Source: an archaeon (lineage in GTDB: Archaea > EX4484-52 > B79-G9). From it: DNA of 22,167 nt. The position numbers and the translations under genes were made by a program. This document shows, piece after piece, positions 199 to 16,150 of this stretch (positions within the stretch are counted from its first letter, which is position 1; the number at the start of each line of letters is the position of its first letter). The DNA is taken from contig JBDRKP010000021.1 of the NCBI GenBank assembly GCA_043813875.1, forward strand, positions 1-22,167. The letters are read 5' to 3'. The notes beneath the pieces are model-generated. The model was not told where the DNA came from. It saw only the letters and a program-made list of their open reading frames with translations, and did not search any database.

Positions 199-275
199 TA
201 TGAATGGAAGAGAAGAAATGGAAGATGAAGGAAACAGTAGACGAAGGATGAAAAATGATGATGGTGGATGAAAAG

Positions 276-1049
276 ATGAAGACTGTTGCAGTTATCGGAT
301 TCGGAAGGTTCGGACAGATGGTGGCAGAGGTACTTTCGCAGTGCTTTGAGGTATATGCATACAATCCGCGCGATAAGAGCAAGATCGCAAAGGAGCTTGG
401 AATAAAATTCGAGCCGTCTCTTGAAAAAGCTGCAGGGAAGGACATAGTCATACTTTCAATGCCTATATCGTGTCTTTGCGATGTTTTGCGGGATATAGCG
501 CCGCATCTTAAGCCGGGTGCGCTGGTGCTTGATGTGTGTTCTGTCAAGGAGAAGCCTGCTATGCTCATGAAAAAGATGCTGCCAAAGGATGTGGATATAG
601 TCGCGACCCATCCATTATTCGGGCCATCTGTTAAAGTAGAGATTGTTAAGGGAAAGACTGTTTATGATATTGCTGATAAGAAGATAGTCCTCTGTCCTGT
701 GAGGACAAAAAAGCTTGATGTCGGGAAGTTGAAGGGATTTCTTGAAGAATTAGGACTTGTCGTGTATATCACAACTCCTGCTGAGCATGACAGGCAGATG
801 GCAATAGCGCAGGGGCTTACTCATTATATTGCGCTTGCACTCAGGAAGATGGGTGTGGGTGAGCAGGATCTTACGACGCCGAATTTTGATGCGCTGATCG
901 GGATCATCAAAAGGCTTGATAATGATACTGATGTGCTGCTGAAAGATATACAGGTGCAAAATAAGTATGCTTCAGAGCAGAGGAATATTTTCAGAAAGAC
1001 GCTTGATGAAGTTGAAAAAGATATTGATGGTTGTCAAAATGATGATTGA
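276..1049 (+). CDS. tyrA: Prephenate/arogenate dehydrogenase (no ACT domain)
   Basis: Rossmann GFGRFG, DVCSVK, HPLFGP and [14 protein letters not shown] motifs. Start placed at ATG 276 after GGTGG (263-267); the ORF is open from 255. Confidence 0.9.
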
Positions 1050-2592
1050 TGCAAATGGCCACAGGAAAGAGCTGAAGAAGATTGTCGTGAAAATCGGCGG
1101 GTCTGTGCTTAGTGATGATGAGTCGGTAATGAGACAGGCGAAGTGGATCAAAAAGATCGCAAAGGATGTGGAGACTCTTCATGTTGTCGTGTCTGCAAAG
1201 AAGGGAGTCACTGATTGCCTTGTGGAGGAGAGCCGTGCAATGTCTGATAAAAATAAGGCAGTCCACCAGATACAGGGTGAAATCGAGAGCGCAAAGAGAC
1301 TGACAGAGGAACTCAAGAAGATAGGCGTTGATTCAAAGCTGGTCATCCAGGGTACTAATGAATATCCCCTGGTTGCGAAGGGAGATTATCTTGAGGGTAT
1401 GATCGATCTTAAAAAGAGCAAGGAGCGCATACACAAGCTTGACCACAGGCTTTGCGTCATTGCGGGGTATGGCGCGGAAACCGAAGATGGAGATATAGTT
1501 CTCCTTGGCAGGAACTCTACAGATCTTGTGGCTGCTGCAATCGCCAATCTGGATAATGCTGATGCGATCATCTATCTTAAGGACACGCACGGGGTATTGC
1601 GCGATGTGTGCGACAAGGATTCGACCATCTCGCATATCTCTGTTGAAGTGCTCAAAAGAAATATCAATGAGAACAAGTGGGAAGTGCTGCATCCGAAAAC
1701 ACTTGATTTCATCCATCCTAATATTATCGGCATAGTCCAGAAACACACACAACCGATTGGAAAAAACAGTACAATAATTCATGGAGGCGTATCGAGAATG
1801 ATAGGAAAGACTATAAGAATTGAAAGAATATTAAACCGCGACACAGGTAAAACAGTGATCATACCGCTTGATCATGGTGTGACTATAGGCCCATGCGATG
1901 GCCTGTTGGATATGGGAAAGACTGTCGACAAGGTGGCTGAAGGCGGGGCGAATGCAGTGCTTGGGCATGTAGGGCTGCCGCTGCATGGACATCGCGGATA
2001 TGGGCGGGATGTGGGATTGATATTGCATCTTTCGTCGAGCACGACACTTGCGCCTGATCCTAATACTAAGGTGCTTACGGGGTCTGTCGAGCAGGCGATC
2101 AAGATGGGGGCTGATGCAGTTTCAGTGCATGTTAATGTGGGTGCTCTGGATGAGTCGAAGATGCTTTCTGATCTTGGAGCCATATCGCAGAAGTGCATGG
2201 AATGGGGAATGCCGCTACTTGCGATGATGTACCCTAGAGGCCCGAATATCAAGAATCCGCATGATGTGGCTGTTGTGAAGCATGCGGTCAGGATCGCTGC
2301 CGAGCTTGGGGTTGATATCATCAAGACCAATTATACCGGCGATGCGAAAAGTTTCAAGGAAGTCGTGGACGGCGCAATGGGTGTGCCTGTTGTTATCGCA
2401 GGCGGAGCCAAGGGCGGAGATCTTGAAACTTTGAAGATGGTCGAGGGCGCTATCAGGGCAGGCGGCGCTGGTGTCGCTATGGGCAGGAACGCTTTCCAGC
2501 ACGAGAATCCGGTCAAGCTGGTCAGGGCGGTGTGCGCAATCGTGCATGAAGGAAAAAGCGCAGAAGAGGCTATGAAGATCGTCATGAAATGA
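1039..2592 (+). CDS. Fusion of an N-terminal aspartokinase-like (amino acid kinase) domain and a C-terminal 2-amino-3,7-dideoxy-D-threo-hept-6-ulosonate (ADH) synthase (class I DhnA-type aldolase, MJ0400/AroA' family)
   Basis: N-half: [43 protein letters not shown]-half from Met 1798: [23 protein letters not shown], Schiff-base DIIKTNY, IAGG, GRNAFQ. No stop between the halves; start overlaps the tyrA end; adjacent to DHQ synthase II. Confidence 0.85.
1783..1800 (+). promoter_or_regulatory. Internal RBS (GGAGG) and in-frame ATG at the ADH synthase domain start
   Basis: GGAGG 1783-1787, then ATG 1798 beginning the family-typical MIGK.IR N-terminus. Confidence 0.55.
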
Positions 2593-2634: not shown

Positions 2635-3627
2635 ATGAAAACGTTTTGGGTAGATGCAAGAAAATGGGATAAGAAGATAGTCACTACTGCGCTTGAATCC
2701 GGCGCTGATGCTGTTGTCGTTGAAAAAGGATTTACGGGCAAGGTGAAGGAGCTTGGCGTGATCAAGACAGTATCTGTCGACGGCGATATCAAGCTCGGGA
2801 AGGATGTGCTGGAGCTTGAGATCAATACCAAAGAGGATGAGATCAAGGCAGCGAAGCTTGGAAAGACGAAGACCGTGATTCTGAAAACAAAGGACTGGAC
2901 TATCATCCCGCTTGAGAATCTTATCGCCCAGAACGTAGGGATAATCGCCAATGTCAAGGATTCAAAGGAAGCGAAGGTTGCACTTGAGATACTTGAAAAG
3001 GGTGTCAATGGAGTGCTTCTTGTGACAGCGGATCTCAATGAGATCAAGAGGACAGGAAAAATCGTGAATGAGAATCAGGAGAAGATATCTCTTGTCAAGG
3101 CCAGGGTCACGAAAATAGAGGCTGTCGGTTCCGGTGACAGGGTCTGCATAGATACCTGTACGAACATGAAGGAAGGGGAAGGCATGCTTGTGGGGAATTC
3201 AAGTTCTGGCATGTTTTTAGTGCATTCTGAGAGTGTCGAGAACCCGTATGTCGCTGCAAGGCCGTTCAGGGTGAATGCAGGCGGAGTCCATGCATATGTC
3301 AAGGTGCCAGGCAACATGACAAAGTACCTGTCTGATATCAAATCAGGGGATAAGGTGCTTGTAATTGATTCTCTTGGCAATACACAGGAAGCGATTGTCG
3401 GCAGGAATAAGATCGAGAGGCGACCTATGATGCTTGTCGAAGCGGATGCTGCGGGTAAGAATGTGTCGCTGATATTGCAGAATGCGGAGACCATACGCCT
3501 CGTCAAGCCTAGCGGCAAGCCGGTATCTATCGTGAAGCTGAAGGTCGGCGATGAGGTGCTTGCGTATACTGAGAGCGCTGGCAGGCATTTCGGGATGAAG
3601 ATCGATGAGACTATAAAGGAAAAGTGA
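2635..3627 (+). CDS. 3-dehydroquinate synthase II (MJ1249/AroB' family)
   Basis: WTIIPLENLIA, GDRVCIDTC, RPFRVNAGGVHAY, LQNAETIRLV, GRHFG motifs; GGTGA RBS at 2625-2629. Confidence 0.93.
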   Translation: MKTFWVDARKWDKKIVTTALESGADAVVVEKGFTGKVKELGVIKTVSVDGDIKLGKDVLELEINTKEDEIKAAKLGKTKTVILKTKDWTIIPLENLIAQNVGIIANVKDSKEAKVALEILEKGVNGVLLVTADLNEIKRTGKIVNENQEKISLVKARVTKIEAVGSGDRVCIDTCTNMKEGEGMLVGNSSSGMFLVHSESVENPYVAARPFRVNAGGVHAYVKVPGNMTKYLSDIKSGDKVLVIDSLGNTQEAIVGRNKIERRPMMLVEADAAGKNVSLILQNAETIRLVKPSGKPVSIVKLKVGDEVLAYTESAGRHFGMKIDETIKEK

Positions 3628-3647
3628 GATTTTTATGTTGTGATTTG

Positions 3648-3914
3648 ATGGAACTTGAAGACCTTAGGAAGCAGATTGATGAACTTGATGAATTGCTGCT
3701 TGAAGTGATGTCGAAACGGTTGTCTCTTATGCCCAGGGTTGCAGAGATAAAGCGCTGTCGCGGTATCGATATCGACCAGCAGGACAGGGAGAGGCAGCTG
3801 GTTGAGAATATCCGAAGAAAGGCAAAACAGAAGGGTCTTGATCCTGATTTTATCGAGAGGATAATCACTGAAATCATAAAAGAGTCAAAAAGTATACAGA
3901 AAAAGAACATGTGA
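3648..3914 (+). CDS. Stand-alone chorismate mutase (AroQ type)
   Basis: LEDLRKQIDELD..LL...KR......VAEIK and D.DRE motifs, ending ESKSIQ; ATG 3648 (alternative GTG 3624). Confidence 0.88.
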   Translation: MELEDLRKQIDELDELLLEVMSKRLSLMPRVAEIKRCRGIDIDQQDRERQLVENIRRKAKQKGLDPDFIERIITEIIKESKSIQKKNM

Positions 3915-5215
3915 GAATGATGCTTGAAATAAAAAAAGCTTTGAAGCCGTTTGATGCGGTGGTGAAGGCGCCTCCGTCGAAAAGCTATACCAACCGGGCT
4001 TTGCTGATTGCTGCGCTTTCGGGCGGGAAGACAGTGATATTGAATGCGCTTGAGAGCGATGATACTAAGTATATGGAAGAGGCATTGAGGCAGCTTGGCA
4101 TTGATGTCGAGAAGAAAGGCGATACTTATACTGTCTTCGGGAAAGGCGGCAGGCTGGAGACTCCGGAAGAGCCGATATATCTTGGCAATGCCGGGACCGC
4201 GATGAGGTTCCTGACTACTGCCTCTGCGCTGGTCGACTCGGGCCATGTCATCCTCAAGGGTAATGAGAGGATGAGTGAGCGCCCCATGGGTGATCTGCTT
4301 CTAGCATTGAAATTGATCGGCGTGAATGCGCATTCGGTGATGAATAATGGCTGCCCTCCTGTGGTTGTGGAAGGCGGTGGGATTGCCGGAGGGATGACGA
4401 AGATCAACGGGGATAAGAGTTCGCAGTATTTCACTTCGATACTCCTTTCTGCTCCTTATGCGAAGAAGGATGTTGTGATAAAGACGGTCGGGGAGCTTAC
4501 GTCGAAGCCTTATATCGATATGACTATCTCTTCCATGAGGGAGTTTGGCGTCAATGTCGAGAATGAGGATTATCGCTCGTTCAAGGTGAAGGCCCGGCAG
4601 ACGTATTATGCGCGCGATTATATTGTGGAGGGTGATTATTCGAGCGCTTCATATCTTTTTGCGGCTGCTGCGGTGACGGGGAGCAGGATCAGGGTCACGG
4701 GCATCAATCCGAATTCTGCGCAGGGGGATAAGGATTTTGTTGATGCGCTTGTCAGGATGGGCTGCTCAAAGGATACTGGCAATGACTGGATCGAGATACG
4801 CGGGCCTCAAAAGCTGAAGGCTATACCCGAGATTGACATGAATCATATGCCTGATGTCGCTATGACGCTTGCTGTGGTTGCGGCGTTCGCTATAGGTACG
4901 ACGAAAATAGTGAATGTCGCGAATATGCGCATAAAGGAGACTGACAGGATCAAGGCAACTGTTGCTGAGCTTAAGAAGACAGGCGTGAATGCTGAGGAGC
5001 TACCTGATGGGATGATTGTTGAAGGCGGGACGCCGCATGGAGCGCTGATTGAGACTTATGATGATCACAGGATTGCGATGTGTTTTGCGGTTCTTGGTCT
5101 TGTGGCGGAAGGTATTGTCCTTACCGATGAGAAGTGCGTCTCAAAGACTTATCCTGATTTTTTTGAAGTGATTGAAGATATGGTCAAACAAAAGACAACC
5201 GGTGTGATGGAATGA
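3911..5215 (+). CDS. aroA: EPSP synthase (3-phosphoshikimate 1-carboxyvinyltransferase)
   Basis: PPSKSYTNR, LGNAGTAMRFL, SSQY, RIKETDRI, DDHRIAM motifs; true start may be ATG 3917 or 3920. Confidence 0.95.
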   Translation: MRMMLEIKKALKPFDAVVKAPPSKSYTNRALLIAALSGGKTVILNALESDDTKYMEEALRQLGIDVEKKGDTYTVFGKGGRLETPEEPIYLGNAGTAMRFLTTASALVDSGHVILKGNERMSERPMGDLLLALKLIGVNAHSVMNNGCPPVVVEGGGIAGGMTKINGDKSSQYFTSILLSAPYAKKDVVIKTVGELTSKPYIDMTISSMREFGVNVENEDYRSFKVKARQTYYARDYIVEGDYSSASYLFAAAAVTGSRIRVTGINPNSAQGDKDFVDALVRMGCSKDTGNDWIEIRGPQKLKAIPEIDMNHMPDVAMTLAVVAAFAIGTTKIVNVANMRIKETDRIKATVAELKKTGVNAEELPDGMIVEGGTPHGALIETYDDHRIAMCFAVLGLVAEGIVLTDEKCVSKTYPDFFEVIEDMVKQKTTGVME

Positions 5216-6015
5216 AGATAAGCATACTTGGCCCTCGCGGCACGTTCAGCCATGAGGCTGCGCTTGTGTATGACAAGAGCGCTCGCCTTTTATTTGAGAA
5301 TACGATATATGATGTGTTTGATGCGCTTGACAAGGGGAAGGCGGATGCTGCCCTGGTCCCGATTGAGAATTCGACGTCGGGGACGGTTGGTGAGACGCTT
5401 GATGCGCTTGTTGATTTTGACCTTGTGATCAGCAGGGTCATATATCTTAAGGTGGAGCATAATCTTATCGGGGTCAAGTTGGATGGTATCAGGAAGCTTT
5501 ATGTACATCCGCAGGCGCATGCGCAGTGCAGGAATTATATCAGGAAGAATTTTTCGGATGCCGAGATCATACATACTTCGAGCAATGCGGCGTCTGCGAA
5601 GCTTGCAGGGAATGATGATGAAGGGGCGATCGCTCCGACCATTGCGGCAGAGATCTACGGGAAGAATATCATTGAAAAGAAGGTACAGGACAACGGGCAG
5701 AATGTCACTATCTTTGCTGTGCTGAAGGAGGCTTATGGCAGAAGCACGGGAAATGACCGGACGTTTGTTGTGTTCAATTGCGTTGACAGGCCAGGGATAC
5801 TTCATGAGATTCTCGGGGTGTTTGCCAAGAGGAATGTGAATCTTTCGAAAATCGAGTCGCGCCCGAATAAGAAGAAGATGGGCGAATATATATTCTATGT
5901 GGAATTCGGCGGCCATCCTGATGACGAGAATGTGAAAGAGATACTTCTTGAGCTTGCGAAGAAAGTGGTTTTCCAAAAGGTGCTTGGGGCATATCCCGCG
6001 GGTGGGGTTAAATGA
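5212..6015 (+). CDS. pheA: Prephenate dehydratase with C-terminal ACT domain
   Basis: LGPRGTFSHEAA, VPIENSTSG, HPQAHAQCR, DRPGIL, NLSKIESRP; ATGA overlap with aroA. Confidence 0.93.
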   Translation: MKISILGPRGTFSHEAALVYDKSARLLFENTIYDVFDALDKGKADAALVPIENSTSGTVGETLDALVDFDLVISRVIYLKVEHNLIGVKLDGIRKLYVHPQAHAQCRNYIRKNFSDAEIIHTSSNAASAKLAGNDDEGAIAPTIAAEIYGKNIIEKKVQDNGQNVTIFAVLKEAYGRSTGNDRTFVVFNCVDRPGILHEILGVFAKRNVNLSKIESRPNKKKMGEYIFYVEFGGHPDDENVKEILLELAKKVVFQKVLGAYPAGGVK

Positions 6016-6683
6016 TTGCGATACCGATTACCTCAAAGACTGTCGATTCTGCGCTGAAGGATATCCGGCTTGCCGAGAAGTCAGGTGCTGATGTTGTCGA
6101 ATTGCGGCTGGATTATATCCCAACGCTTGGAGATGGCGAACTCATGAGGATGATGAGGGCTTCTAAGCTTTTGAAGATCGTCACTGTGAGGCGCAAGGCG
6201 GATGGCGGCCATTTCACCGGCACTGAGAAGGAGCGGCTCAGGGTTCTTAAAAAGGCGTGTGAGCTGGGTGCTGATTATGTTGATGTTGAGCTTGATGCTG
6301 ATATCGGCGTGTTCAAGGATGCCGGTGTGAAGACTATCTGTTCGTATCATGATTTCAGTGAGACTCCGCGTGTCGATGACCTTTTGGCTGTCCTTGAGTC
6401 GTGTCTTTTGAAGGGACCGGATGTGGTAAAGATTGTCACGATGGCAAATAAGTATAATGACAATGTGAAGATTTTTGAGTTTCTTGAGAAATCGAAGGTG
6501 ATTGCCGGGGATGTTAAGGTCATTTCTTTCTGCATGGGGGAGAAGGGGAAGCTGAGCCGCGCGTTGTGCGTGAAGTTCGGCAGTTTTCTTACGTTCGCTT
6601 CGCTTGGGTGCGGCAAGGAGTCTGCGCTTGGGCAAATCGATATCAATCTTATGAAGGAGTTCATGGAGGTTGTTGTCTCGTGA
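6012..6683 (+). CDS. aroD: Type I 3-dehydroquinate dehydratase
   Basis: DVVELRLD, YVDVEL, SYHDFSETP, VVKIV, FCMGEKGKLSR, ALGQI; ATGA overlap with pheA. Confidence 0.92.
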   Translation: MIAIPITSKTVDSALKDIRLAEKSGADVVELRLDYIPTLGDGELMRMMRASKLLKIVTVRRKADGGHFTGTEKERLRVLKKACELGADYVDVELDADIGVFKDAGVKTICSYHDFSETPRVDDLLAVLESCLLKGPDVVKIVTMANKYNDNVKIFEFLEKSKVIAGDVKVISFCMGEKGKLSRALCVKFGSFLTFASLGCGKESALGQIDINLMKEFMEVVVS

Positions 6684-7519
6684 TCAGTTCTTTGACTAAA
6701 ATTGTTGGCGTTATCGGGAATCCTATCGAGCATAGCATGTCGCCTGCTATGCATAATGCGGCTTTTTTGAAGATGGGTGTGGATTTTGTGTATCTTGCAT
6801 TCAGGGTGACTGATCTAAAAGGGGCAGTTAAGGGTATGAGGGCTTTGGGTATCAGGGGCTATAATGTGACTATTCCTTTCAAGGTTGATGTCATGAAGCA
6901 TCTTGATGAGGTTGATCCGCTTGCTTGCAAGATCGGTGCTGTGAATACTGTTGTGAATGATGGCGGTGTGCTTACCGGGTATAATACTGATTGCTCCGGG
7001 GCGGTTTCTGCGCTTGAAGGTAAGATCAGGCTCAAGGGGAAGAAGGTGATGGTTCTTGGGGCTGGCGGGGCTGCACGCGCTGTGGCGTTCGGCGTGGCTG
7101 ATAAGGGCGCGGATGTCGTTGTTGTGAATCGCAGTCCTCAGAAAGGGATGGAATTGACAGAGGATGTCAATCAATATTTTAAGGGGCGGGCGAATTTTGT
7201 CCCGTTTGACGGGCTGGCTGATGGGGTGATGGATGATTTTGATGTCCTGGTCAATACGACGTCTGTTGGGATGTATCCTGATGTTTCCAAGTCGCCGGTG
7301 AAGAAGGGTATTTTGAAGAAGGGTCTTGTTGTCATGGATGTCGTGTATAATCCTATCGAGACGCGTCTGCTTTCGGATGCCAAGTCAGTCGGCTGCGTGA
7401 CGATTAAGGGGATCGAGATGTTTGTCAACCAGGGGGCTTTAGCTTTTGAGCTGTTTACAGGGAAGAAGGCGCCGAAGGATGTCATGAGGGATGCTGTTTT
7501 GAAGATGCTTCCAGTTTAA
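6680..7519 (+). CDS. aroE: Shikimate dehydrogenase
   Basis: GNPIEHSMSPAMHN, NVTIPFK, IGAVNT, GYNTD, GAGGAARA, DVVYNP; GTG 6680 overlaps the aroD stop, RBS GGAGGT 6665-6670. Confidence 0.95.
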   Translation: MISSLTKIVGVIGNPIEHSMSPAMHNAAFLKMGVDFVYLAFRVTDLKGAVKGMRALGIRGYNVTIPFKVDVMKHLDEVDPLACKIGAVNTVVNDGGVLTGYNTDCSGAVSALEGKIRLKGKKVMVLGAGGAARAVAFGVADKGADVVVVNRSPQKGMELTEDVNQYFKGRANFVPFDGLADGVMDDFDVLVNTTSVGMYPDVSKSPVKKGILKKGLVVMDVVYNPIETRLLSDAKSVGCVTIKGIEMFVNQGALAFELFTGKKAPKDVMRDAVLKMLPV

Positions 7520-7536
7520 GATGCTCTTCTTTGAAT

Positions 7537-7663
7537 ATTTTTTATTGTGTATAAAGTATGTCTTGACAATAAAAATCATCTCGCCTCGCTCGAAGCTTTT
7601 CAGCAAAGCTGCAAAAGCGTGAAATGTCCCTGTCACCTCAAAATTTCATGATTTTTTATTGTG
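7537..7663. repeat. Structured intergenic element with inverted repeats, an internal hairpin and 13-nt direct repeats (MITE-like or cis-regulatory RNA)
   Basis: ACAATAAAAATCAT (7566-7579) is complementary to ATGATTTTTTATTGT (7648-7662) with one extra T; hairpin GCTTTTCAGC-AAA-GCTGCAAAAGC (7595-7618); TGAAAT/ATTTCA (7620-7625/7643-7648); ATTTTTTATTGTG at 7537 and 7651. Confidence 0.55.
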
Positions 7664-7733
7664 ATGCATGATGGTGTCTTTTTGTGACTATCCTGGCATA
7701 AGGAATAAATACTTCGTTCCCGAATTATATTAA

Positions 7734-8267
7734 ATGAAGAATATCGTTCTTGTCGGTTACAGGTGCACGGGGAAGACTGAAGCCGGGAAAAAGGTTGCGC
7801 TTGAGCTTGGTTTCCAGTTCATCGATACTGACAGATGGATCGAAAAGGATGCGGGGACGGATATATCCCGGTTCGTGTCTAAGTACGGGTGGGATGAGTT
7901 TCGGGAGCTTGAGCGCAAGATTGTTGCGCGCGCATCAAGGCAGACCGGTGCTGTCATCTCTGCCGGCGGCGGAACTGTGCTTGATGATGATAATGTCTTT
8001 AATCTCAAGAGGAACGGCGTTGTGTTCTGGCTTGGCGCCAGGCCGGAGGTCATATTTCAGCGGATGAATGCGGATCCGAAATCAGATACGCAGCGCCCGA
8101 GCCTTACTGACGGGAAAGATGCGCTGGCAGAGATTGAAGAGACGCTTGGCGAGCGGCTCGAGAAGTACGAGAGGGCGTCGGATCATAAGATCGATACAAG
8201 CGATATTGGAATCGAGGATGTTGTGAAAAAGATTGTCAGGATATATAGGAATAGTACAAAATTATGA
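7734..8267 (+). CDS. aroK: Shikimate kinase, bacterial P-loop AroK/AroL type
   Basis: Walker A GYRCTGKT, DTD, GWDEFRELE, SAGGG, RP lid motif; no RBS, AATAAATA about 25 nt upstream suggests a leaderless transcript. Confidence 0.92.
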   Translation: MKNIVLVGYRCTGKTEAGKKVALELGFQFIDTDRWIEKDAGTDISRFVSKYGWDEFRELERKIVARASRQTGAVISAGGGTVLDDDNVFNLKRNGVVFWLGARPEVIFQRMNADPKSDTQRPSLTDGKDALAEIEETLGERLEKYERASDHKIDTSDIGIEDVVKKIVRIYRNSTKL

Positions 8268-8284
8268 AATGAGAGGTAATCATC

Positions 8285-9361
8285 ATGGGTGGAAATACTT
8301 TCGGTACGATATTTAAGGCAACCACTTTCGGTGAGTCGCACGGGAATGCTGTCGGTGTGGTTGTTGACGGATGTCCTGCAGGGCTTTTGCTTGATGTTTC
8401 TGATATCCAGAAGGAGCTTGATCGGAGGAAGCCGGGGCAGAGCGGGATTACTACGCAGCGCAAGGAAGATGATGTGGCTGAGATACTTTCGGGAGTTTTT
8501 GCAGGAAAGACGCTTGGAACTCCTATTGCTATCATTGTCCGTAATAAGGACCAGAAGTCGAAGGATTATGAGAGACTGAAGGATGTATTCAGGCCTGGCA
8601 CTGCTGATTTTACATACTGTTCGAAGTATGGTCTCCGTGATTATCGCGGCGGGGGGAGAGCGTCAGGCAGGGAGACTGTCGGTCGTGTTGCTGCAGGGGC
8701 TATCGCAAAGAAGATTCTTGCTTTGAAAGGTACACGGATTGTCGCTCATACGAAAGAGGTCTGTGGCATCAGGGCGAAAACGTTTGATGAGTCTGTTATC
8801 GAAAAGAATCCTGTGAGGTGCGCTGATGGGAAGGCTGCGGCGCTGATGGAGAAGAAGATTGCCGGGGCTGCCAGGGCAGGTGATTCTGTCGGCGGGATTG
8901 TCGAGGTCATCGCAAGGAGTCCGCCGTGCAATCTTGGTGAGCCTGTTTTTGATAAGCTTGATGCTGATATTGCGAAAGCGCTTATGTCTATCGGCGCGGT
9001 CAAGGGTGTCGAGATTGGCGAGGGTTTCAATGTGTCGAATATGCTTGGGTCAGATGATAATGATGTCCTGCATTATGACGGGAAGCGGGTGCGACACCAG
9101 ACTAATCATGCCGGCGGGATAGTCGGCGGCATCGCCAATGGTGAGGATATTGTGGTCCGGATCGCTGTCAAGCCGACGCCGTCTGTCTTCAAGGAGCAGG
9201 TCATGATGGATGTCAAGTGCCAACAGAAGAAGATGGCAATTGAAGGGCGGCATGATCCGTGCATCTGCCCGCGTATCGTGCCTGTGGCTGAGGCGATGGT
9301 TGCGCTTGTGCTTGTCGATCATATGCTGCGCGCGAGGGTTGCAAGAGTTGATGAGTTATGA
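8285..9361 (+). CDS. aroC: Chorismate synthase
   Basis: [37 protein letters not shown] motifs; GAGGT RBS. Confidence 0.96.
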
Positions 9362-10482
9362 ATGTGGCGTCACGGATACAGGATATCCAGCTCAGCATAA
9401 GGAAGATTTCTGATATGGCTTCTTTAGTGCCTGGTTGCATACGATTTGATATAGGGCAGCCGGATTTCAAGACGCCGAAGAATATACAGGATGCGGCTGT
9501 CAGGGCGATAAAGGAAGGGAAACATGATTATACTCCTGTTGCCGGAATTGCGCCTCTCAGGGAGGCGATTGCTGCCTCTGAGGGAGCTAAGGGATTTGAT
9601 GTTGTTGATAAGAATGTGATGGTGACTATGGGCGGCATGGGTGCGCTGTTCACTACGATGCTCGGGTTTCTTGATGCCGGGGATGAGGTGATTTTTCCTG
9701 ATCCTACCTGGCCGCCGTATAAGCTGATTGTCAGTTCGGTCGGCGGGGTTTCACGGCTGGTTCCTTATTTTGGTGAGGGCGGGAAGCTTGATATCGATGC
9801 GATATCTTCTGCTATCGGGGCGAGGACGAAGTTTGTTGTTGTCAATACGCCTGAGAATCCGACAGGCAGGGTTATCGGGAAATCGGATCTGCGTGCTATC
9901 GCTCAAGTTGCACAGGATAAGGGTGTGATGATAATATCTGATGAGGTTTATGACAGGATATTGTTTGACGGGGCAAAGCATGTGTCGATCAAGAAGTATG
10001 CTCATGATAATGCGATTCTTATCAATTCGGTGTCGAAGACTTATGCGATGACCGGGTGGCGACTCGGGTGGCTGGTCGCGCGAGAGGATATAGTCGGGCA
10101 GCTTGTGAAGTGCAACCGGGCGTCTGTCGCGTGCCCGAACTCGGTGTCACAGTATGCGGCGCTTGAGGCGCTTTGCGGACCTCAGGATGCTGTTACTGAT
10201 ATGGTGTCTGAGTACCAGAAAAGGAAGGATCTTGTGGTAAAGCTGATGGATAAGATGGGCTGGGAGTATGTTGAGCCCCGCGGGGCGTTTTATGCTTTCC
10301 CGAAAGTCGGCGGGGATTCGTGGAAGTTTGCGACGGATCTCATTGAGAAGGCGAAGGTTTCTGTTGTGCCTGGGCTGCCGTCGGGGCCAAGGAGCGAGGA
10401 GTATGTCAGGTTATGTTTCGGGTCTGCTGATCTTGAGCAGGTAAAGGTTGGGTTTGAGAGGATTGAGAGGTTTCTCAGTTAG
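9358..10482 (+). CDS. PLP-dependent class I/II aminotransferase, probably aromatic/aspartate aminotransferase
   Basis: IGQPDF, NTPENPTG, ISDEVY, SVSKTYAMTGWRLG (PLP lysine); ATGA overlap with aroC. Confidence 0.88.
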   Translation: MNVASRIQDIQLSIRKISDMASLVPGCIRFDIGQPDFKTPKNIQDAAVRAIKEGKHDYTPVAGIAPLREAIAASEGAKGFDVVDKNVMVTMGGMGALFTTMLGFLDAGDEVIFPDPTWPPYKLIVSSVGGVSRLVPYFGEGGKLDIDAISSAIGARTKFVVVNTPENPTGRVIGKSDLRAIAQVAQDKGVMIISDEVYDRILFDGAKHVSIKKYAHDNAILINSVSKTYAMTGWRLGWLVAREDIVGQLVKCNRASVACPNSVSQYAALEALCGPQDAVTDMVSEYQKRKDLVVKLMDKMGWEYVEPRGAFYAFPKVGGDSWKFATDLIEKAKVSVVPGLPSGPRSEEYVRLCFGSADLEQVKVGFERIERFLS

Positions 10483-13826: not shown

Positions 13827-14915
13827 ATGTTTATGCAGAGGATTGTTCTTCATGTGGATATGGATTCGTTTTTTGCTGCGCTCGAGGAGTTGCGACGTCC
13901 CGAGATACGCGGGAAGGCGGTCGTTGTCTGCGTATATTCCGGGCGTACTTCGGATTCCGGGGCTGTGAGTACTGCTAATTACCGGGCGAGGGAGCTTGGC
14001 ATCAAGTCAGGGATGACCATATATTCTGCTAAACGGCTTGCGATGGATAAAGATGTTGTGTTTCTTCCGGTTGATATGGAGCATTACCGGGCGGTATCTC
14101 TGAGGATCATGGAGCTGCTTTCTCGCGAGGCTGATGCAGTTGAGCAGGTGAGCGTGGATGAGGCTTACCTTGATATCACGCGGAGGTCGAAAGGCGATTT
14201 TTTGACTGCCGGGAAGATTGGCATAAAGATAAAGAGGAAGATCAAAGAGCAGGAGAGTCTTACATGCTCGGTGGGTATCGGGCATAATAAGTTTGTCGCC
14301 AAGATGGCATCGAAGCGCAAGAAGCCTGACGGGCTGACTGTTGTGAAGCCGGAGGAGGTGCTTGCCTTTTTGGGTGATTTGCCTGTAGCTAAGCTTCACG
14401 GGATCGGGAAGAAGACTGAAGAAGCCCTGAATGAGCTTGGGATAAGGACTGCGAAGGAACTTTTAGGGTCGCGGGTGGATGTTCTTTTTGGGGTGTTCGG
14501 TGAGAATAAGGCGAAGATGCTTCTTGATAAGGCGTCCGGGATTGATGATGAGCCGGTCGAGCAGCATGAGATGCAGCAGATATCGCGGATAGGGACACTA
14601 AAACACGATTCGGATGATGTTGATTTTGTTTTTCAGAAGATCAAAGAGATTTCTGTTGGCATGAAAGAGAATGTCGAGAAAAGGAAGGTGGCTTTCCGCA
14701 CAGTTTCTGTAATCACTATTGATACCCAACTTGAGACGCGCACGAGGAGTGAGACGATTGCTCTTACTGATGATGTGGAAGTTGCGCTTGCTGTTGGCAG
14801 AAGATTGCTTGCCGGGTTTTTTGCTCTGAATCCGGGTATTGCGCTTCGAAGGGTCGGGATAAGGGTGTCGAACCTTGTTGATAAAAAGAAGCAGAGGACG
14901 CTTGGTGATTTTTGA
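13827..14915 (+). CDS. dinB: Y-family DNA polymerase IV (DinB/Dpo4-like) with C-terminal PIP-like motif
   Basis: LHVDMDSFFA, STANYRAR, SVDEAYLD, AKMASK..KPDG, HhH LHGIGKKT; ends QRTLGDF; start may be ATG 13833. Confidence 0.93.
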   Translation: MFMQRIVLHVDMDSFFAALEELRRPEIRGKAVVVCVYSGRTSDSGAVSTANYRARELGIKSGMTIYSAKRLAMDKDVVFLPVDMEHYRAVSLRIMELLSREADAVEQVSVDEAYLDITRRSKGDFLTAGKIGIKIKRKIKEQESLTCSVGIGHNKFVAKMASKRKKPDGLTVVKPEEVLAFLGDLPVAKLHGIGKKTEEALNELGIRTAKELLGSRVDVLFGVFGENKAKMLLDKASGIDDEPVEQHEMQQISRIGTLKHDSDDVDFVFQKIKEISVGMKENVEKRKVAFRTVSVITIDTQLETRTRSETIALTDDVEVALAVGRRLLAGFFALNPGIALRRVGIRVSNLVDKKKQRTLGDF

Positions 14916-14920
14916 CGGGC

Positions 14921-14935
14921 TTTTTTCTATTTTTT
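14921..14935 (+). terminator. Oligo-T tract, candidate archaeal terminator after dinB
   Basis: TTTTTTCTATTTTTT directly after the dinB stop, between convergent genes. Confidence 0.35.
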
Positions 14936-15767
14936 ATTGTGTATATTTTCTATATTTTAGTTTCTTTGTGATTTCTGGCTCATCGAGATAATTTTCACTA
15001 GTTGCGACTTTGCTGCCTGATTCCAGTTCAAGGTTTTTTCTAGCATCGCCTGCGATTTTTCCGCCTTTTTTTGCGGCGATTTTGTTTTCTATGAAGCCTT
15101 GTGAGTCTTTGTTTTTTGCGATTTCTGTTGTTGACGCTTCTCCAAGCATTGAGAAGATTAATTCAAGGTCGGTCATGTGGTCTCGAAGGTTTTCTTTTTT
15201 CAGGTTCTTGTATTGTTTGTATTCTTCGACTGTCTTGTCGAATGTTGCTTTTGTGATTTCGTTTGTCAGTATTGCGTATTCTATGTTGTTATTCATTCCT
15301 CTGTTCTTCCATTCTTCTGTCAGTTCCTGTCTTATCGCTATGCCTCTTAGGCGTTTGTCTATCCAGTTTTTTGAATAGCCTTTTTGCTCGTAGAGATGTT
15401 TCATGCGAACTTGTGCCAGTTCGGGATCTTCTATTTCCTGAACCCGTTCATATCCTACTTTTGCGAGCCATCTTTTGAATGGCTCTGCTTTTTTTGACGG
15501 GATCGACTGGATTATACGGAACATGGATTCTGTGCTTGCGCAGTCTGTATTCCTTAATTTTCCATCCGGAGCTTCTAATTTCAAAGGGTTACATATTGTA
15601 ACCAGTTGATTTTCTCTATGCTTTAGAACTTTCCAATAATTACGAGAATCAGGACTGTCTGTCAAAACAGCTACAGTGTCAACTACAGAGAAATACCATT
15701 CGTCCTTGTGCCATATTCTTCTAATATGTTTTCCCTGAAATACTACCAAAGCATCTTTTGAGTCCAT
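14934..15767 (-). CDS. Bro-N domain protein (phage antirepressor-like DNA-binding family)
   Basis: F.G..IRR.W...EWYFSVVD.V..LTDS, RNYWKVLK, RIIQSIPSKKAEPFKRWLA, ENLRDHMTDLELIF motifs; AT-richer than the aro genes. Confidence 0.8.
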   Translation of the reverse strand: MDSKDALVVFQGKHIRRIWHKDEWYFSVVDTVAVLTDSPDSRNYWKVLKHRENQLVTICNPLKLEAPDGKLRNTDCASTESMFRIIQSIPSKKAEPFKRWLAKVGYERVQEIEDPELAQVRMKHLYEQKGYSKNWIDKRLRGIAIRQELTEEWKNRGMNNNIEYAILTNEITKATFDKTVEEYKQYKNLKKENLRDHMTDLELIFSMLGEASTTEIAKNKDSQGFIENKIAAKKGGKIAGDARKNLELESGSKVATSENYLDEPEITKKLKYRKYTQ

Positions 15768-15873
15768 CTTATTACGATATTGGTTTTAAGAATATATATC
15801 TAATTGGTACATTGTGCCGATAGGATTGTTTTTGTTGCAAAGTGCATTTCTGACGGCTGAATGCAAAATGTTT

Positions 15874-15890
15874 CCAAAAGGCTTATAAAT
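15874..15890 (+). promoter_or_regulatory. BRE + TATA promoter about 310 nt upstream of trpE
   Basis: CCAAAAGGC TTATAAAT; a second TTTATAT at 15902-15908. Confidence 0.45.
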
Positions 15891-16150
15891 TTTTGTGATT
15901 ATTTATATGTTATATCGTTGTTATCTTATCGTGATGCCAATGGATTGGAAATGCGCTTGACGGATTTTGAACCTGATTTTCCTATCCTTAAGTATCCTGG
16001 TTATCAATGTTTTCTTTCTTTAGTCCTGCTTTTCTGGCGCCCGTTCTTTTAGGTTGTTTCTGGTCTGGTTATCTGGAAAATTATGAAAATGTTTGTCTGT
16101 TTTTTGTCTGTTTACTGTCATGTATGTTCTGAAATCGACAACAGTCGCAG

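Follow-up and report, generated by a model that had tools for sequence, protein, structure and literature searches.

The question raised by this locus is why an archaeon should carry an aspartokinase-like domain on the enzyme that opens its shikimate pathway. The locus lies in a 22,167-nucleotide stretch of archaeal DNA (positions 1 to 22,167 of contig JBDRKP010000021.1, assembly GCA_043813875.1, GTDB lineage EX4484-52; B79-G9), which was analysed as a whole and is referred to here as the window. A single stop-free open reading frame (ORF) on its + strand, 967..2592 and 541 aa when counted from the first ATG in the ORF list, joins a domain of the amino acid kinase family to 2-amino-3,7-dideoxy-D-threo-hept-6-ulosonate (ADH) synthase. 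The fusion starts at 1039, or at 1042, the methionine common to its orthologues, and its start is overlapped by the stop codon of the upstream tyrA (1047-1049); the product from 1039 is 517 aa long. Shikimate entry from aspartate semialdehyde and 6-deoxy-5-ketofructose-1-phosphate (hereafter DKFP) has been worked out biochemically in Methanocaldococcus. In ordinary aspartokinases, ACT domains carry feedback by lysine and threonine, and the fusion raises the question of how aspartate semialdehyde is supplied for aromatic amino acids when these two end products shut the ordinary aspartokinase. The fusion is a real, conserved gene with two enzyme-type domains, not an assembly error, and it heads an archaeal aromatic amino acid (aro) operon. 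The kinase half is probably an aspartokinase isozyme that escapes feedback and serves the aromatic branch alone, in an arrangement like that of ThrA.

An earlier note on this DNA, made from the letters alone, had described one uninterrupted ORF with a kinase domain ahead of an aldolase, and the single frame does hold both (AA_kinase, then TIGR01949). Stops or indels at the junction, which that note had named as signs of two separate genes, occur in none of the seven orthologous genomic copies that span it; in all seven the junction lies in one frame. In GTDB, the lineage of this genome (1.64 Mb, 91.5% complete) is a phylum of 42 species, and the kinase-ADH synthase gene was found in seven of the 42 species-level genomes, this one included, under the NCBI labels Nanohalarchaeota, Aenigmatarchaeota, Methanosarcinales archaeon or uncultured archaeon. 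The fusion frame is 525-549 aa long in five genomes, and in two the contig begins within the kinase half and the frame continues through the junction. Linker length is constant across orthologues, save for a 2-aa insert in P0002. Compared with the window protein, the five full-length orthologues are 74-76% identical over the kinase half and 83-87% over the aldolase half. Non-synonymous differences in the kinase half (pN 0.085-0.156) are far fewer than synonymous ones (pS 0.61-0.92), and in the six of ten pairs for which dS was computable, dN/dS over the kinase half is 0.047-0.126 and over the aldolase half 0.021-0.067. Both parts of the protein are constrained, the kinase half being under purifying selection.

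The architecture is rare, a point on which the earlier note had left room for the opposite. A search of 5.8 billion clustered proteins (clusters built at 90% identity) returned 185 matches, and among the best 120, which are those listed, six clusters (P0001-P0006, 517-528 aa, 79-100% identity over the full length) contain both PF00696 and PF01791, with the aldolase standing without a kinase domain in the other 114. The stated rarity is bounded by the searches made: the representative library failed to return the fusion's own cluster, and single-domain representatives may therefore conceal other fused forms. In the ESM Atlas the sequence is present, with no usable neighbour. The earlier note knew of no described fusion of these two domains, and none was found in a full-text literature search, which covered mostly titles and abstracts and under-covered subscription journals. 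Since the folds of both halves are known and there are precedents for the logic of joining them, what is new is the rare pairing in one small lineage.

By its profile matches, its modelled fold and its position in the tree, the kinase half is classed not as a canonical aspartokinase but as a catalytic domain on its own, within a separate clade of ACT-less aspartokinase-like proteins. Pfam AA_kinase covers aa 13-226 (82.3 bits, cut-off 24.9), no ACT domain was detected in the fusion with Pfam, and the aldolase comes straight after the kinase; the aspartate kinase models match with their catalytic part only (positions 3-263 of 406). When 1.84 billion representatives were searched exhaustively with HMMER for nearest relatives, 1005 matched at E <=0.001, of which 80 reached 1e-10 and a single one 1e-30. 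Standalone proteins of approximately 230-290 aa and 35-42% identity lead these matches; they share the motifs KxGGS, VSAxxGxT, GE, GRNxSD and KD and differ from the kinase half in being single-domain. When the clade profile (alignment A2) was compared with solved structures, nine aspartokinases (E 3.5e-23 to 9e-9) came ahead of UMP kinases and isopentenyl phosphate kinases. An AlphaFold2 (AF2) model of the kinase domain built from A2 (predicted local distance difference test, pLDDT, 93; predicted template modelling score, pTM, 0.91) retrieves aspartokinase chains at all of Foldseek ranks 1-10 (template modelling (TM) score 0.71-0.84), among them the Methanocaldococcus aspartokinase at TM 0.83-0.84. 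The full-length model, made from the seven-row alignment A1 (pLDDT 55, pTM 0.48), is too poor for reading domain packing, and a composite alignment, A4, was set aside after it put standalone kinases on aldolase columns. In a maximum-likelihood tree built by a quick method from 73 kinase domains, the five full-length fusions group together (support 100) within a 46-row clade of ACT-less proteins (Shimodaira-Hasegawa-like approximate likelihood ratio test, SH-aLRT, 100), where their exact placement is poorly supported.

The kinase half keeps the catalytic and aspartate-contacting residues of aspartokinase, either identically or as conservative replacements. In E. coli LysC, according to PMC5481828, aspartate is held by salt bridges with Glu119 and Arg198 and contacts Ala40, Thr45, Phe184 and Ser201. 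LysC numbering was carried over through three alignments (the genome's own aspartokinase with LysC, the own aspartokinase with the fused domain, and the fused domain with the Methanocaldococcus enzyme), and residues were counted in a 30-row clade alignment. LysC K8 and D202, which we take to be the catalytic residues, correspond to K18 and D162, each present in 30 of 30 rows, as are the equivalents of S39 (S52) and E119 (E81). A40 and R198 correspond to A53 and R158 (29/30 each), T45 to T58 (26 Thr and 4 Ser), F184 to Y144 (22 Phe and 8 Tyr) and S201 to T161 (23 Ser and 6 Thr). All of these are identical to LysC in the fused domain except Y144 and T161, which are conservative replacements, and none of the positions equivalent to the catalytic Lys and Asp or to the aspartate contacts varies among the seven fusion sequences.

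The C-terminal half matches the profiles, sequence and active-site residues of an ADH synthase of the MJ0400 type, for which the transaldol reaction of aspartate semialdehyde with DKFP is predicted. Pfam DeoC covers aa 272-488 (212.7 bits); TIGR01949, the ADH synthase model, scores 357.8 bits on the whole protein and 360.2 on the C-terminal half, both above its cut-off of 299.45, and NF005556 scores 395-398 bits on the aldolase against a cut-off of 241. Over 262 residues the half aligns with MJ0400 (PDB 2QJG; E 4e-97), which has no kinase domain, and Asp33, Tyr153 and Lys184 of MJ0400 are found as D278, Y398 and K429, each kept in all seven fusions. According to PMC4162585, Asp33 is the proton acceptor and Lys184 the Schiff-base lysine. 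Among the genome contigs, 91.5% complete, no match was found for DAHP (3-deoxy-D-arabino-heptulosonate 7-phosphate) synthase I or II (PF00793, PF01474) or for 3-dehydroquinate (DHQ) synthase I (PF01761), so that at this completeness the ADH synthase route is the only shikimate entry detected. The DHQ synthase II that the earlier note had placed next door is there (PF01959), and the same gene follows the fusion in the loci L017, L018 and L019. The pathway logic put forward in that note, from aspartate activation to the archaeal shikimate entry, holds.

The sugar partner of the aldolase is less settled in the literature. For a haloarchaeal ADH synthase homologue, PMC4162585 leaves the sugar substrate unsettled and reports that the expected reaction could not be shown, and PMC9012536 describes the source of the sugar substrate as unidentified in many archaea. 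The only other DeoC-family aldolase of this genome (genome G000, contig C61, L008:1399-2208, - strand) scores as a 3-hydroxy-5-phosphonooxypentane-2,4-dione thiolase of the LsrF type (398 bits against 297), and its gene overlaps that of a Zn-dependent dehydrogenase (L008:404-1402, - strand). This pair could offer a lead to the source of the sugar substrate.

The aspartokinase and asd genes elsewhere in the genome fit a dedicated isozyme. The genome has five AA_kinase genes: the fusion, a full-length aspartokinase, glutamate 5-kinase (ProB), isopentenyl phosphate kinase (IPK) and UMP kinase (UMPK). The full-length aspartokinase is 436 aa long (TIGR00657, 242 against 208.7), and the single asd (E 7e-107 to 2YV3) lies in an unrelated neighbourhood; the asd and second aspartokinase that the earlier note had wished to see located are thus both encoded elsewhere in the genome. 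Of the other fusion genomes, the four checked for it all have a full-length aspartokinase as well, and asd is present in all six. Among the standalone relatives, the kinase gene directly adjoins asd in three of 12 loci (L023, which also has dapA, L027 and L028).

In the mechanism proposed, the kinase domain would convert L-aspartate to beta-aspartyl phosphate at the expense of ATP, and without ACT domains it should escape feedback by lysine and threonine. The single Asd, encoded elsewhere, would reduce the aspartyl phosphate to aspartate semialdehyde. The fused ADH synthase would condense this semialdehyde with a keto-sugar phosphate, which in Methanocaldococcus is DKFP, before ring closure by the DHQ synthase II of the next gene. 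Kinase and semialdehyde-consuming enzyme would be produced in a constant 1:1 ratio, and the fusion would be co-transcribed with, and translationally linked to, the aro genes. We infer the kinase activity, aspartate as its substrate, the insensitivity to feedback and any channelling from sequence.

Precedents for such an arrangement exist in part. ThrA and MetL are aspartokinases fused to homoserine dehydrogenase, a pairing of steps 1 and 3 that flanks a separate Asd. As in the fusion, an aspartokinase catalytic domain is joined to the enzyme of the branch that consumes aspartate semialdehyde, with Asd apart; the partner, however, is homoserine dehydrogenase and the branch that of threonine or methionine, whereas the fusion pairs ADH synthase with the aromatic branch and lacks ACT domains. 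No match to the homoserine dehydrogenase domains PF00742 or PF03447 was found in the fusion, and its likeness to ThrA is in logic only. The ectoine-specific aspartokinase Ask_Ect retains its regulatory domains. Like the fusion, it is an extra aspartokinase whose gene belongs to the operon of an aspartate-semialdehyde-consuming pathway, although it is a separate bacterial protein, while the kinase of the fusion is physically joined and consists of the catalytic domain only. According to PMC7876524, ectoine operons encode this pathway-specific enzyme beside the housekeeping one. The C-terminal half is, in addition, homologous to the GriI/BagB aldolases of 3-amino-4-hydroxybenzoate pathways (BagB_FevI model 216-218 bits, cut-off 500), which belong to actinomycete secondary metabolism. 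Aldolases of the GriI/BagB type use aspartate semialdehyde. No aspartokinase fusion was described for them in the literature listing searched.

Several observations weigh against a dedicated aspartokinase. The top NCBIfam models for the N-terminal half are all aspartate kinases, and every one of them scores far under its cut-off (NF005159, the best, 96.3 against 379; TIGR00657 77.6 against 208.7; TIGR00656 83.2 against 402). In the tree, the ACT-less clade stands apart (support 100) from a 27-row clade that holds the canonical aspartokinases and ACT-less aspartokinase-homoserine dehydrogenase fusions, and we know of no characterised member of the former. The GRGGSD loop of aspartokinases reads GRNSTD in the fused domain (GRN(S/A)(T/S)D in the clade): the position of LysC Gly199 is Asn in 29 of 30 clade rows and that of Gly200 is Ser or Ala, and with Asn at the Gly199 position the substrate pocket may differ. 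With asd neither fused nor adjoining, the product of the kinase would enter a shared pool unless a complex forms; a complex prediction for the kinase domain, the aldolase domain and Asd scored 0.00 in a run without controls, which says nothing for or against binding. Two sister-family relatives carry an unfused ADH synthase, and in one of them (G021) this enzyme, 80% identical to the aldolase half, heads the aro operon after 680 AT-rich bases in which tblastn (E up to 10) found no kinase remnant; close relatives thus manage without the kinase. The neighbours in the other standalone loci are thrS (two of 12), an ADH-synthase-like aldolase (one of 12, L022, with the kinase downstream of it) and unrelated genes (six of 12). 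The L022 pair, tried as a second independent link between kinase and ADH synthase, was dropped: the aldolase reaches 266 where the cut-off is 299, and DHQ synthase II was not found in that genome, so that it lends no independent support, and this type of kinase occurs in one of 151 genomes of its order. Finally, the public runs found are four DNA runs, with no RNA run among them. The claims of the earlier note about the kinase accordingly divide. Its term aspartokinase-like is upheld by the catalytic and aspartate-contacting residues, and family membership in the strict sense is contradicted by the failed cut-offs, the missing ACT domains, the GRNSTD loop and the separate clade; its pathway-dedicated kinase agrees with the presence of one more paralogue in a genome that has a full-length aspartokinase and only one asd, with activity and substrate still a matter of prediction. 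The complex with Asd that the earlier note had suggested found no support in the analysis.

These same observations leave room for other explanations of the kinase half. As a regulatory or sensor module, it would bind aspartate, a nucleotide or both and gate entry into aromatic synthesis, with catalysis weak or irrelevant. Some DAHP synthases are regulated by N-terminal add-on domains, and here the domain is N-terminal on the first enzyme of the pathway, an ADH synthase without a known feedback device; moreover, a full-length aspartokinase is already encoded in the genome, and a close relative does without the kinase domain. Mere binding, however, would not call for the catalytic Lys and Asp or for the aspartate contacts, all invariant in the seven fusions, and a working enzyme is indicated by the standalone clade members whose operons include asd and dapA; we consider such a module unlikely. 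A working enzyme of the amino acid kinase fold might instead act on something other than aspartate, with a different amino-dicarboxylate as one candidate and, as the other, a carboxylate or phosphate intermediate tied to the second substrate of the aldolase. The scores under all aspartokinase cut-offs and the separate, deep clade would agree with this, as would the altered loop and the replacement of the Thr of the canonical TD motif by Lys in 30 of 30 clade rows, and nothing in the gene neighbourhoods of half of the standalone relatives hints at aspartate metabolism. On the other hand, aspartokinases supply all of the closest structures and profiles, the kinase adjoins asd in three loci and, to our knowledge, members of the fold phosphorylate carboxylates, carbamate or phosphates and not sugar hydroxyls, which makes a different substrate improbable as well.

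Other explanations concern the joining itself. A neutral loss of the stop codon would have left an aldolase made separately from an internal start at Met254, with the joined form having no special role. A Shine-Dalgarno-like GGAGG lies 10 nt before ATG 1798 and is kept in six of seven orthologues, the seventh having AAAGGTGGA (a GGTGG variant), and Met254 is kept in all seven; similar motifs precede nine of the 18 gene starts of the window, and the unfused gene of G021 has AAGGTGA before its ATG. The GGAGG overlaps conserved His-Gly-Gly codons, however, and protein constraint may therefore explain its retention, and the joined frame has been kept through approximately 25% amino acid divergence of the kinase half in seven species-level genomes, which makes a fusion devoid of any role very unlikely. 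Met254, the ancestral start of the aldolase, may be used as a second start: internal initiation is compatible with a functional fusion, and the motif is a hint of it as a real possibility. That two genes were merged by an error of assembly or sequencing is hardly credible. It could be argued from the contigs of three public runs, which cover 1114-1536 and 2093-2699 with none over 1571-2058 and hence none across the junction, and from two short Joint Genome Institute (JGI) contigs of the P0002 cluster (2251 and 2580 bases) that count against the fusion, since the gene is broken by frame shifts in both (P0274/P0271 and P0273/P0272), one of the breaks lying 4 codons past Met254. Yet these broken contigs are shifted inside each domain too, and are thus read as sequencing error or decay and not as a clean two-gene form, and the frame is continuous in seven of seven independent copies, in metagenome-assembled genomes (MAGs) of differing labels and sources and in six clusters at 90% identity.

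The dedicated, feedback-free aspartokinase remains the preferred reading of the kinase half, and a wider proposal can be built on it, which we offer tentatively and with more doubt than belief. In this proposal, the locus would be a dedicated module from aspartate to the aromatic ring; the ACT-less clade would be a new class of unregulated, plug-in aspartokinases, found wherever a branch needs aspartate semialdehyde free of lysine and threonine feedback; a three-enzyme complex of the kinase, the ADH synthase and the lone Asd would hand on the labile acyl phosphate and aldehyde; and the fusion would be Rosetta-stone evidence, from outside the methanogens, for aspartate semialdehyde as the amino acid precursor at the archaeal entry to shikimate. 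The case is narrow, being made by sequence inference alone on seven genomes of one small lineage. The fusion provides independent genomic evidence that links the aspartate branch to the archaeal shikimate entry step, and it points to a sizeable clade of catalytic-domain-only aspartokinase-like proteins, which, if active and feedback-free, would be of interest to archaeal physiology and to amino acid pathway engineering.

The standalone relatives come from archaea labelled DPANN and from MAGs of Acidobacteria and Aminicenantes. Beside the dapA-kinase-asd genes of L023, a genome flagged as unpublished, so that the case is drawn from restricted data, a 216-aa ACT_7 protein (L023:3120-3770, - strand) resembles the C-terminal region of aspartokinases and may be a detached regulatory subunit of the ACT-less kinase. 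In two MAGs labelled Woesearchaeota (L031:2235-4931 and L032:2118-4854), the ACT-less kinase gene is located directly upstream of that of threonyl-tRNA synthetase. Among 18 proteins checked, nine (P0176, P0194, P0200, P0216, P0243, P0252, P0253, P0262 and P0270; 484-607 aa) have AA_kinase joined directly to homoserine dehydrogenase with no Pfam ACT domain; these represent a compact form of ThrA, and their kinase halves group with canonical aspartokinases in the tree.

One fusion gene, that of G020 (contig C55; L011 = L017 = L037), comes from another family of the lineage. With 76% and 83% identity in the two halves, it is as near to the gene of the window as the same-genus copies are, and it nests among them in the tree; the full-length aspartokinase of G020 is just 32% identical to that of the window genome, and its Asd 53%. 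A close fusion next to a distant aspartokinase and Asd suggests that the aro cluster of G020 was transferred laterally or that the contig was mis-binned. Upstream of the G020 fusion lies a 563-aa fusion of prephenate dehydrogenase, prephenate dehydratase and ACT (L017:3034-4725, + strand). In a further genome (G004), DHQ synthase II is separated from the fusion by an inserted 450-aa gene (L019:3066-4418, + strand) that encodes Schlafen AlbA_2 and HATPase_c_4 domains.

The features of the window that surround and compose the fusion are collected in Table 1.

Table 1. Position of the fusion gene, its parts and the neighbouring aromatic amino acid genes in the window.
Feature	Coordinates	Strand	Basis
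tyrA, prephenate dehydrogenase	255..1049	+	PDH_N 79.2 bits, PDH_C 30.1 bits
Fused ORF, 517 aa: aspartokinase-like kinase domain and ADH synthase	1039..2592	+	One frame, two Pfam domains
ACT-less aspartokinase-like catalytic domain, aa 1-253	1039..1797	+	AA_kinase, AF2/Foldseek, residues
Shine-Dalgarno-like GGAGG (1783-1787), then ATG 1798 (Met254)	1783..1800	+	Sequence
ADH synthase domain, aa 254-517, MJ0400-type class I aldolase	1798..2592	+	TIGR01949
DHQ synthase II, next gene after the fusion	2635..3627	+	PF01959, 443.4 bits
Remaining aro operon	3624..10482	+	Pfam

The remaining aro genes encode chorismate mutase, 5-enolpyruvylshikimate-3-phosphate (EPSP) synthase, prephenate dehydratase-ACT, 3-dehydroquinate dehydratase (DHQase) I, shikimate dehydrogenase, an SKI-type shikimate kinase, chorismate synthase and an aminotransferase, and a trp operon is found farther along the window, beyond the aro operon. 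The SKI type is the bacterial form of shikimate kinase, and archaea usually have a GHMP-type kinase; the gene in question (7734-8267, + strand) matches PF01202 with 133 bits. No tRNA genes were found in the window. Between the aro and trp operons, the stretch 13827-15767 carries a gene for a DinB-type polymerase (+ strand) and a Bro-N domain gene (- strand), GC content falls to 0.38 at 15001-16000, and the stretch may be the remnant of a mobile element.

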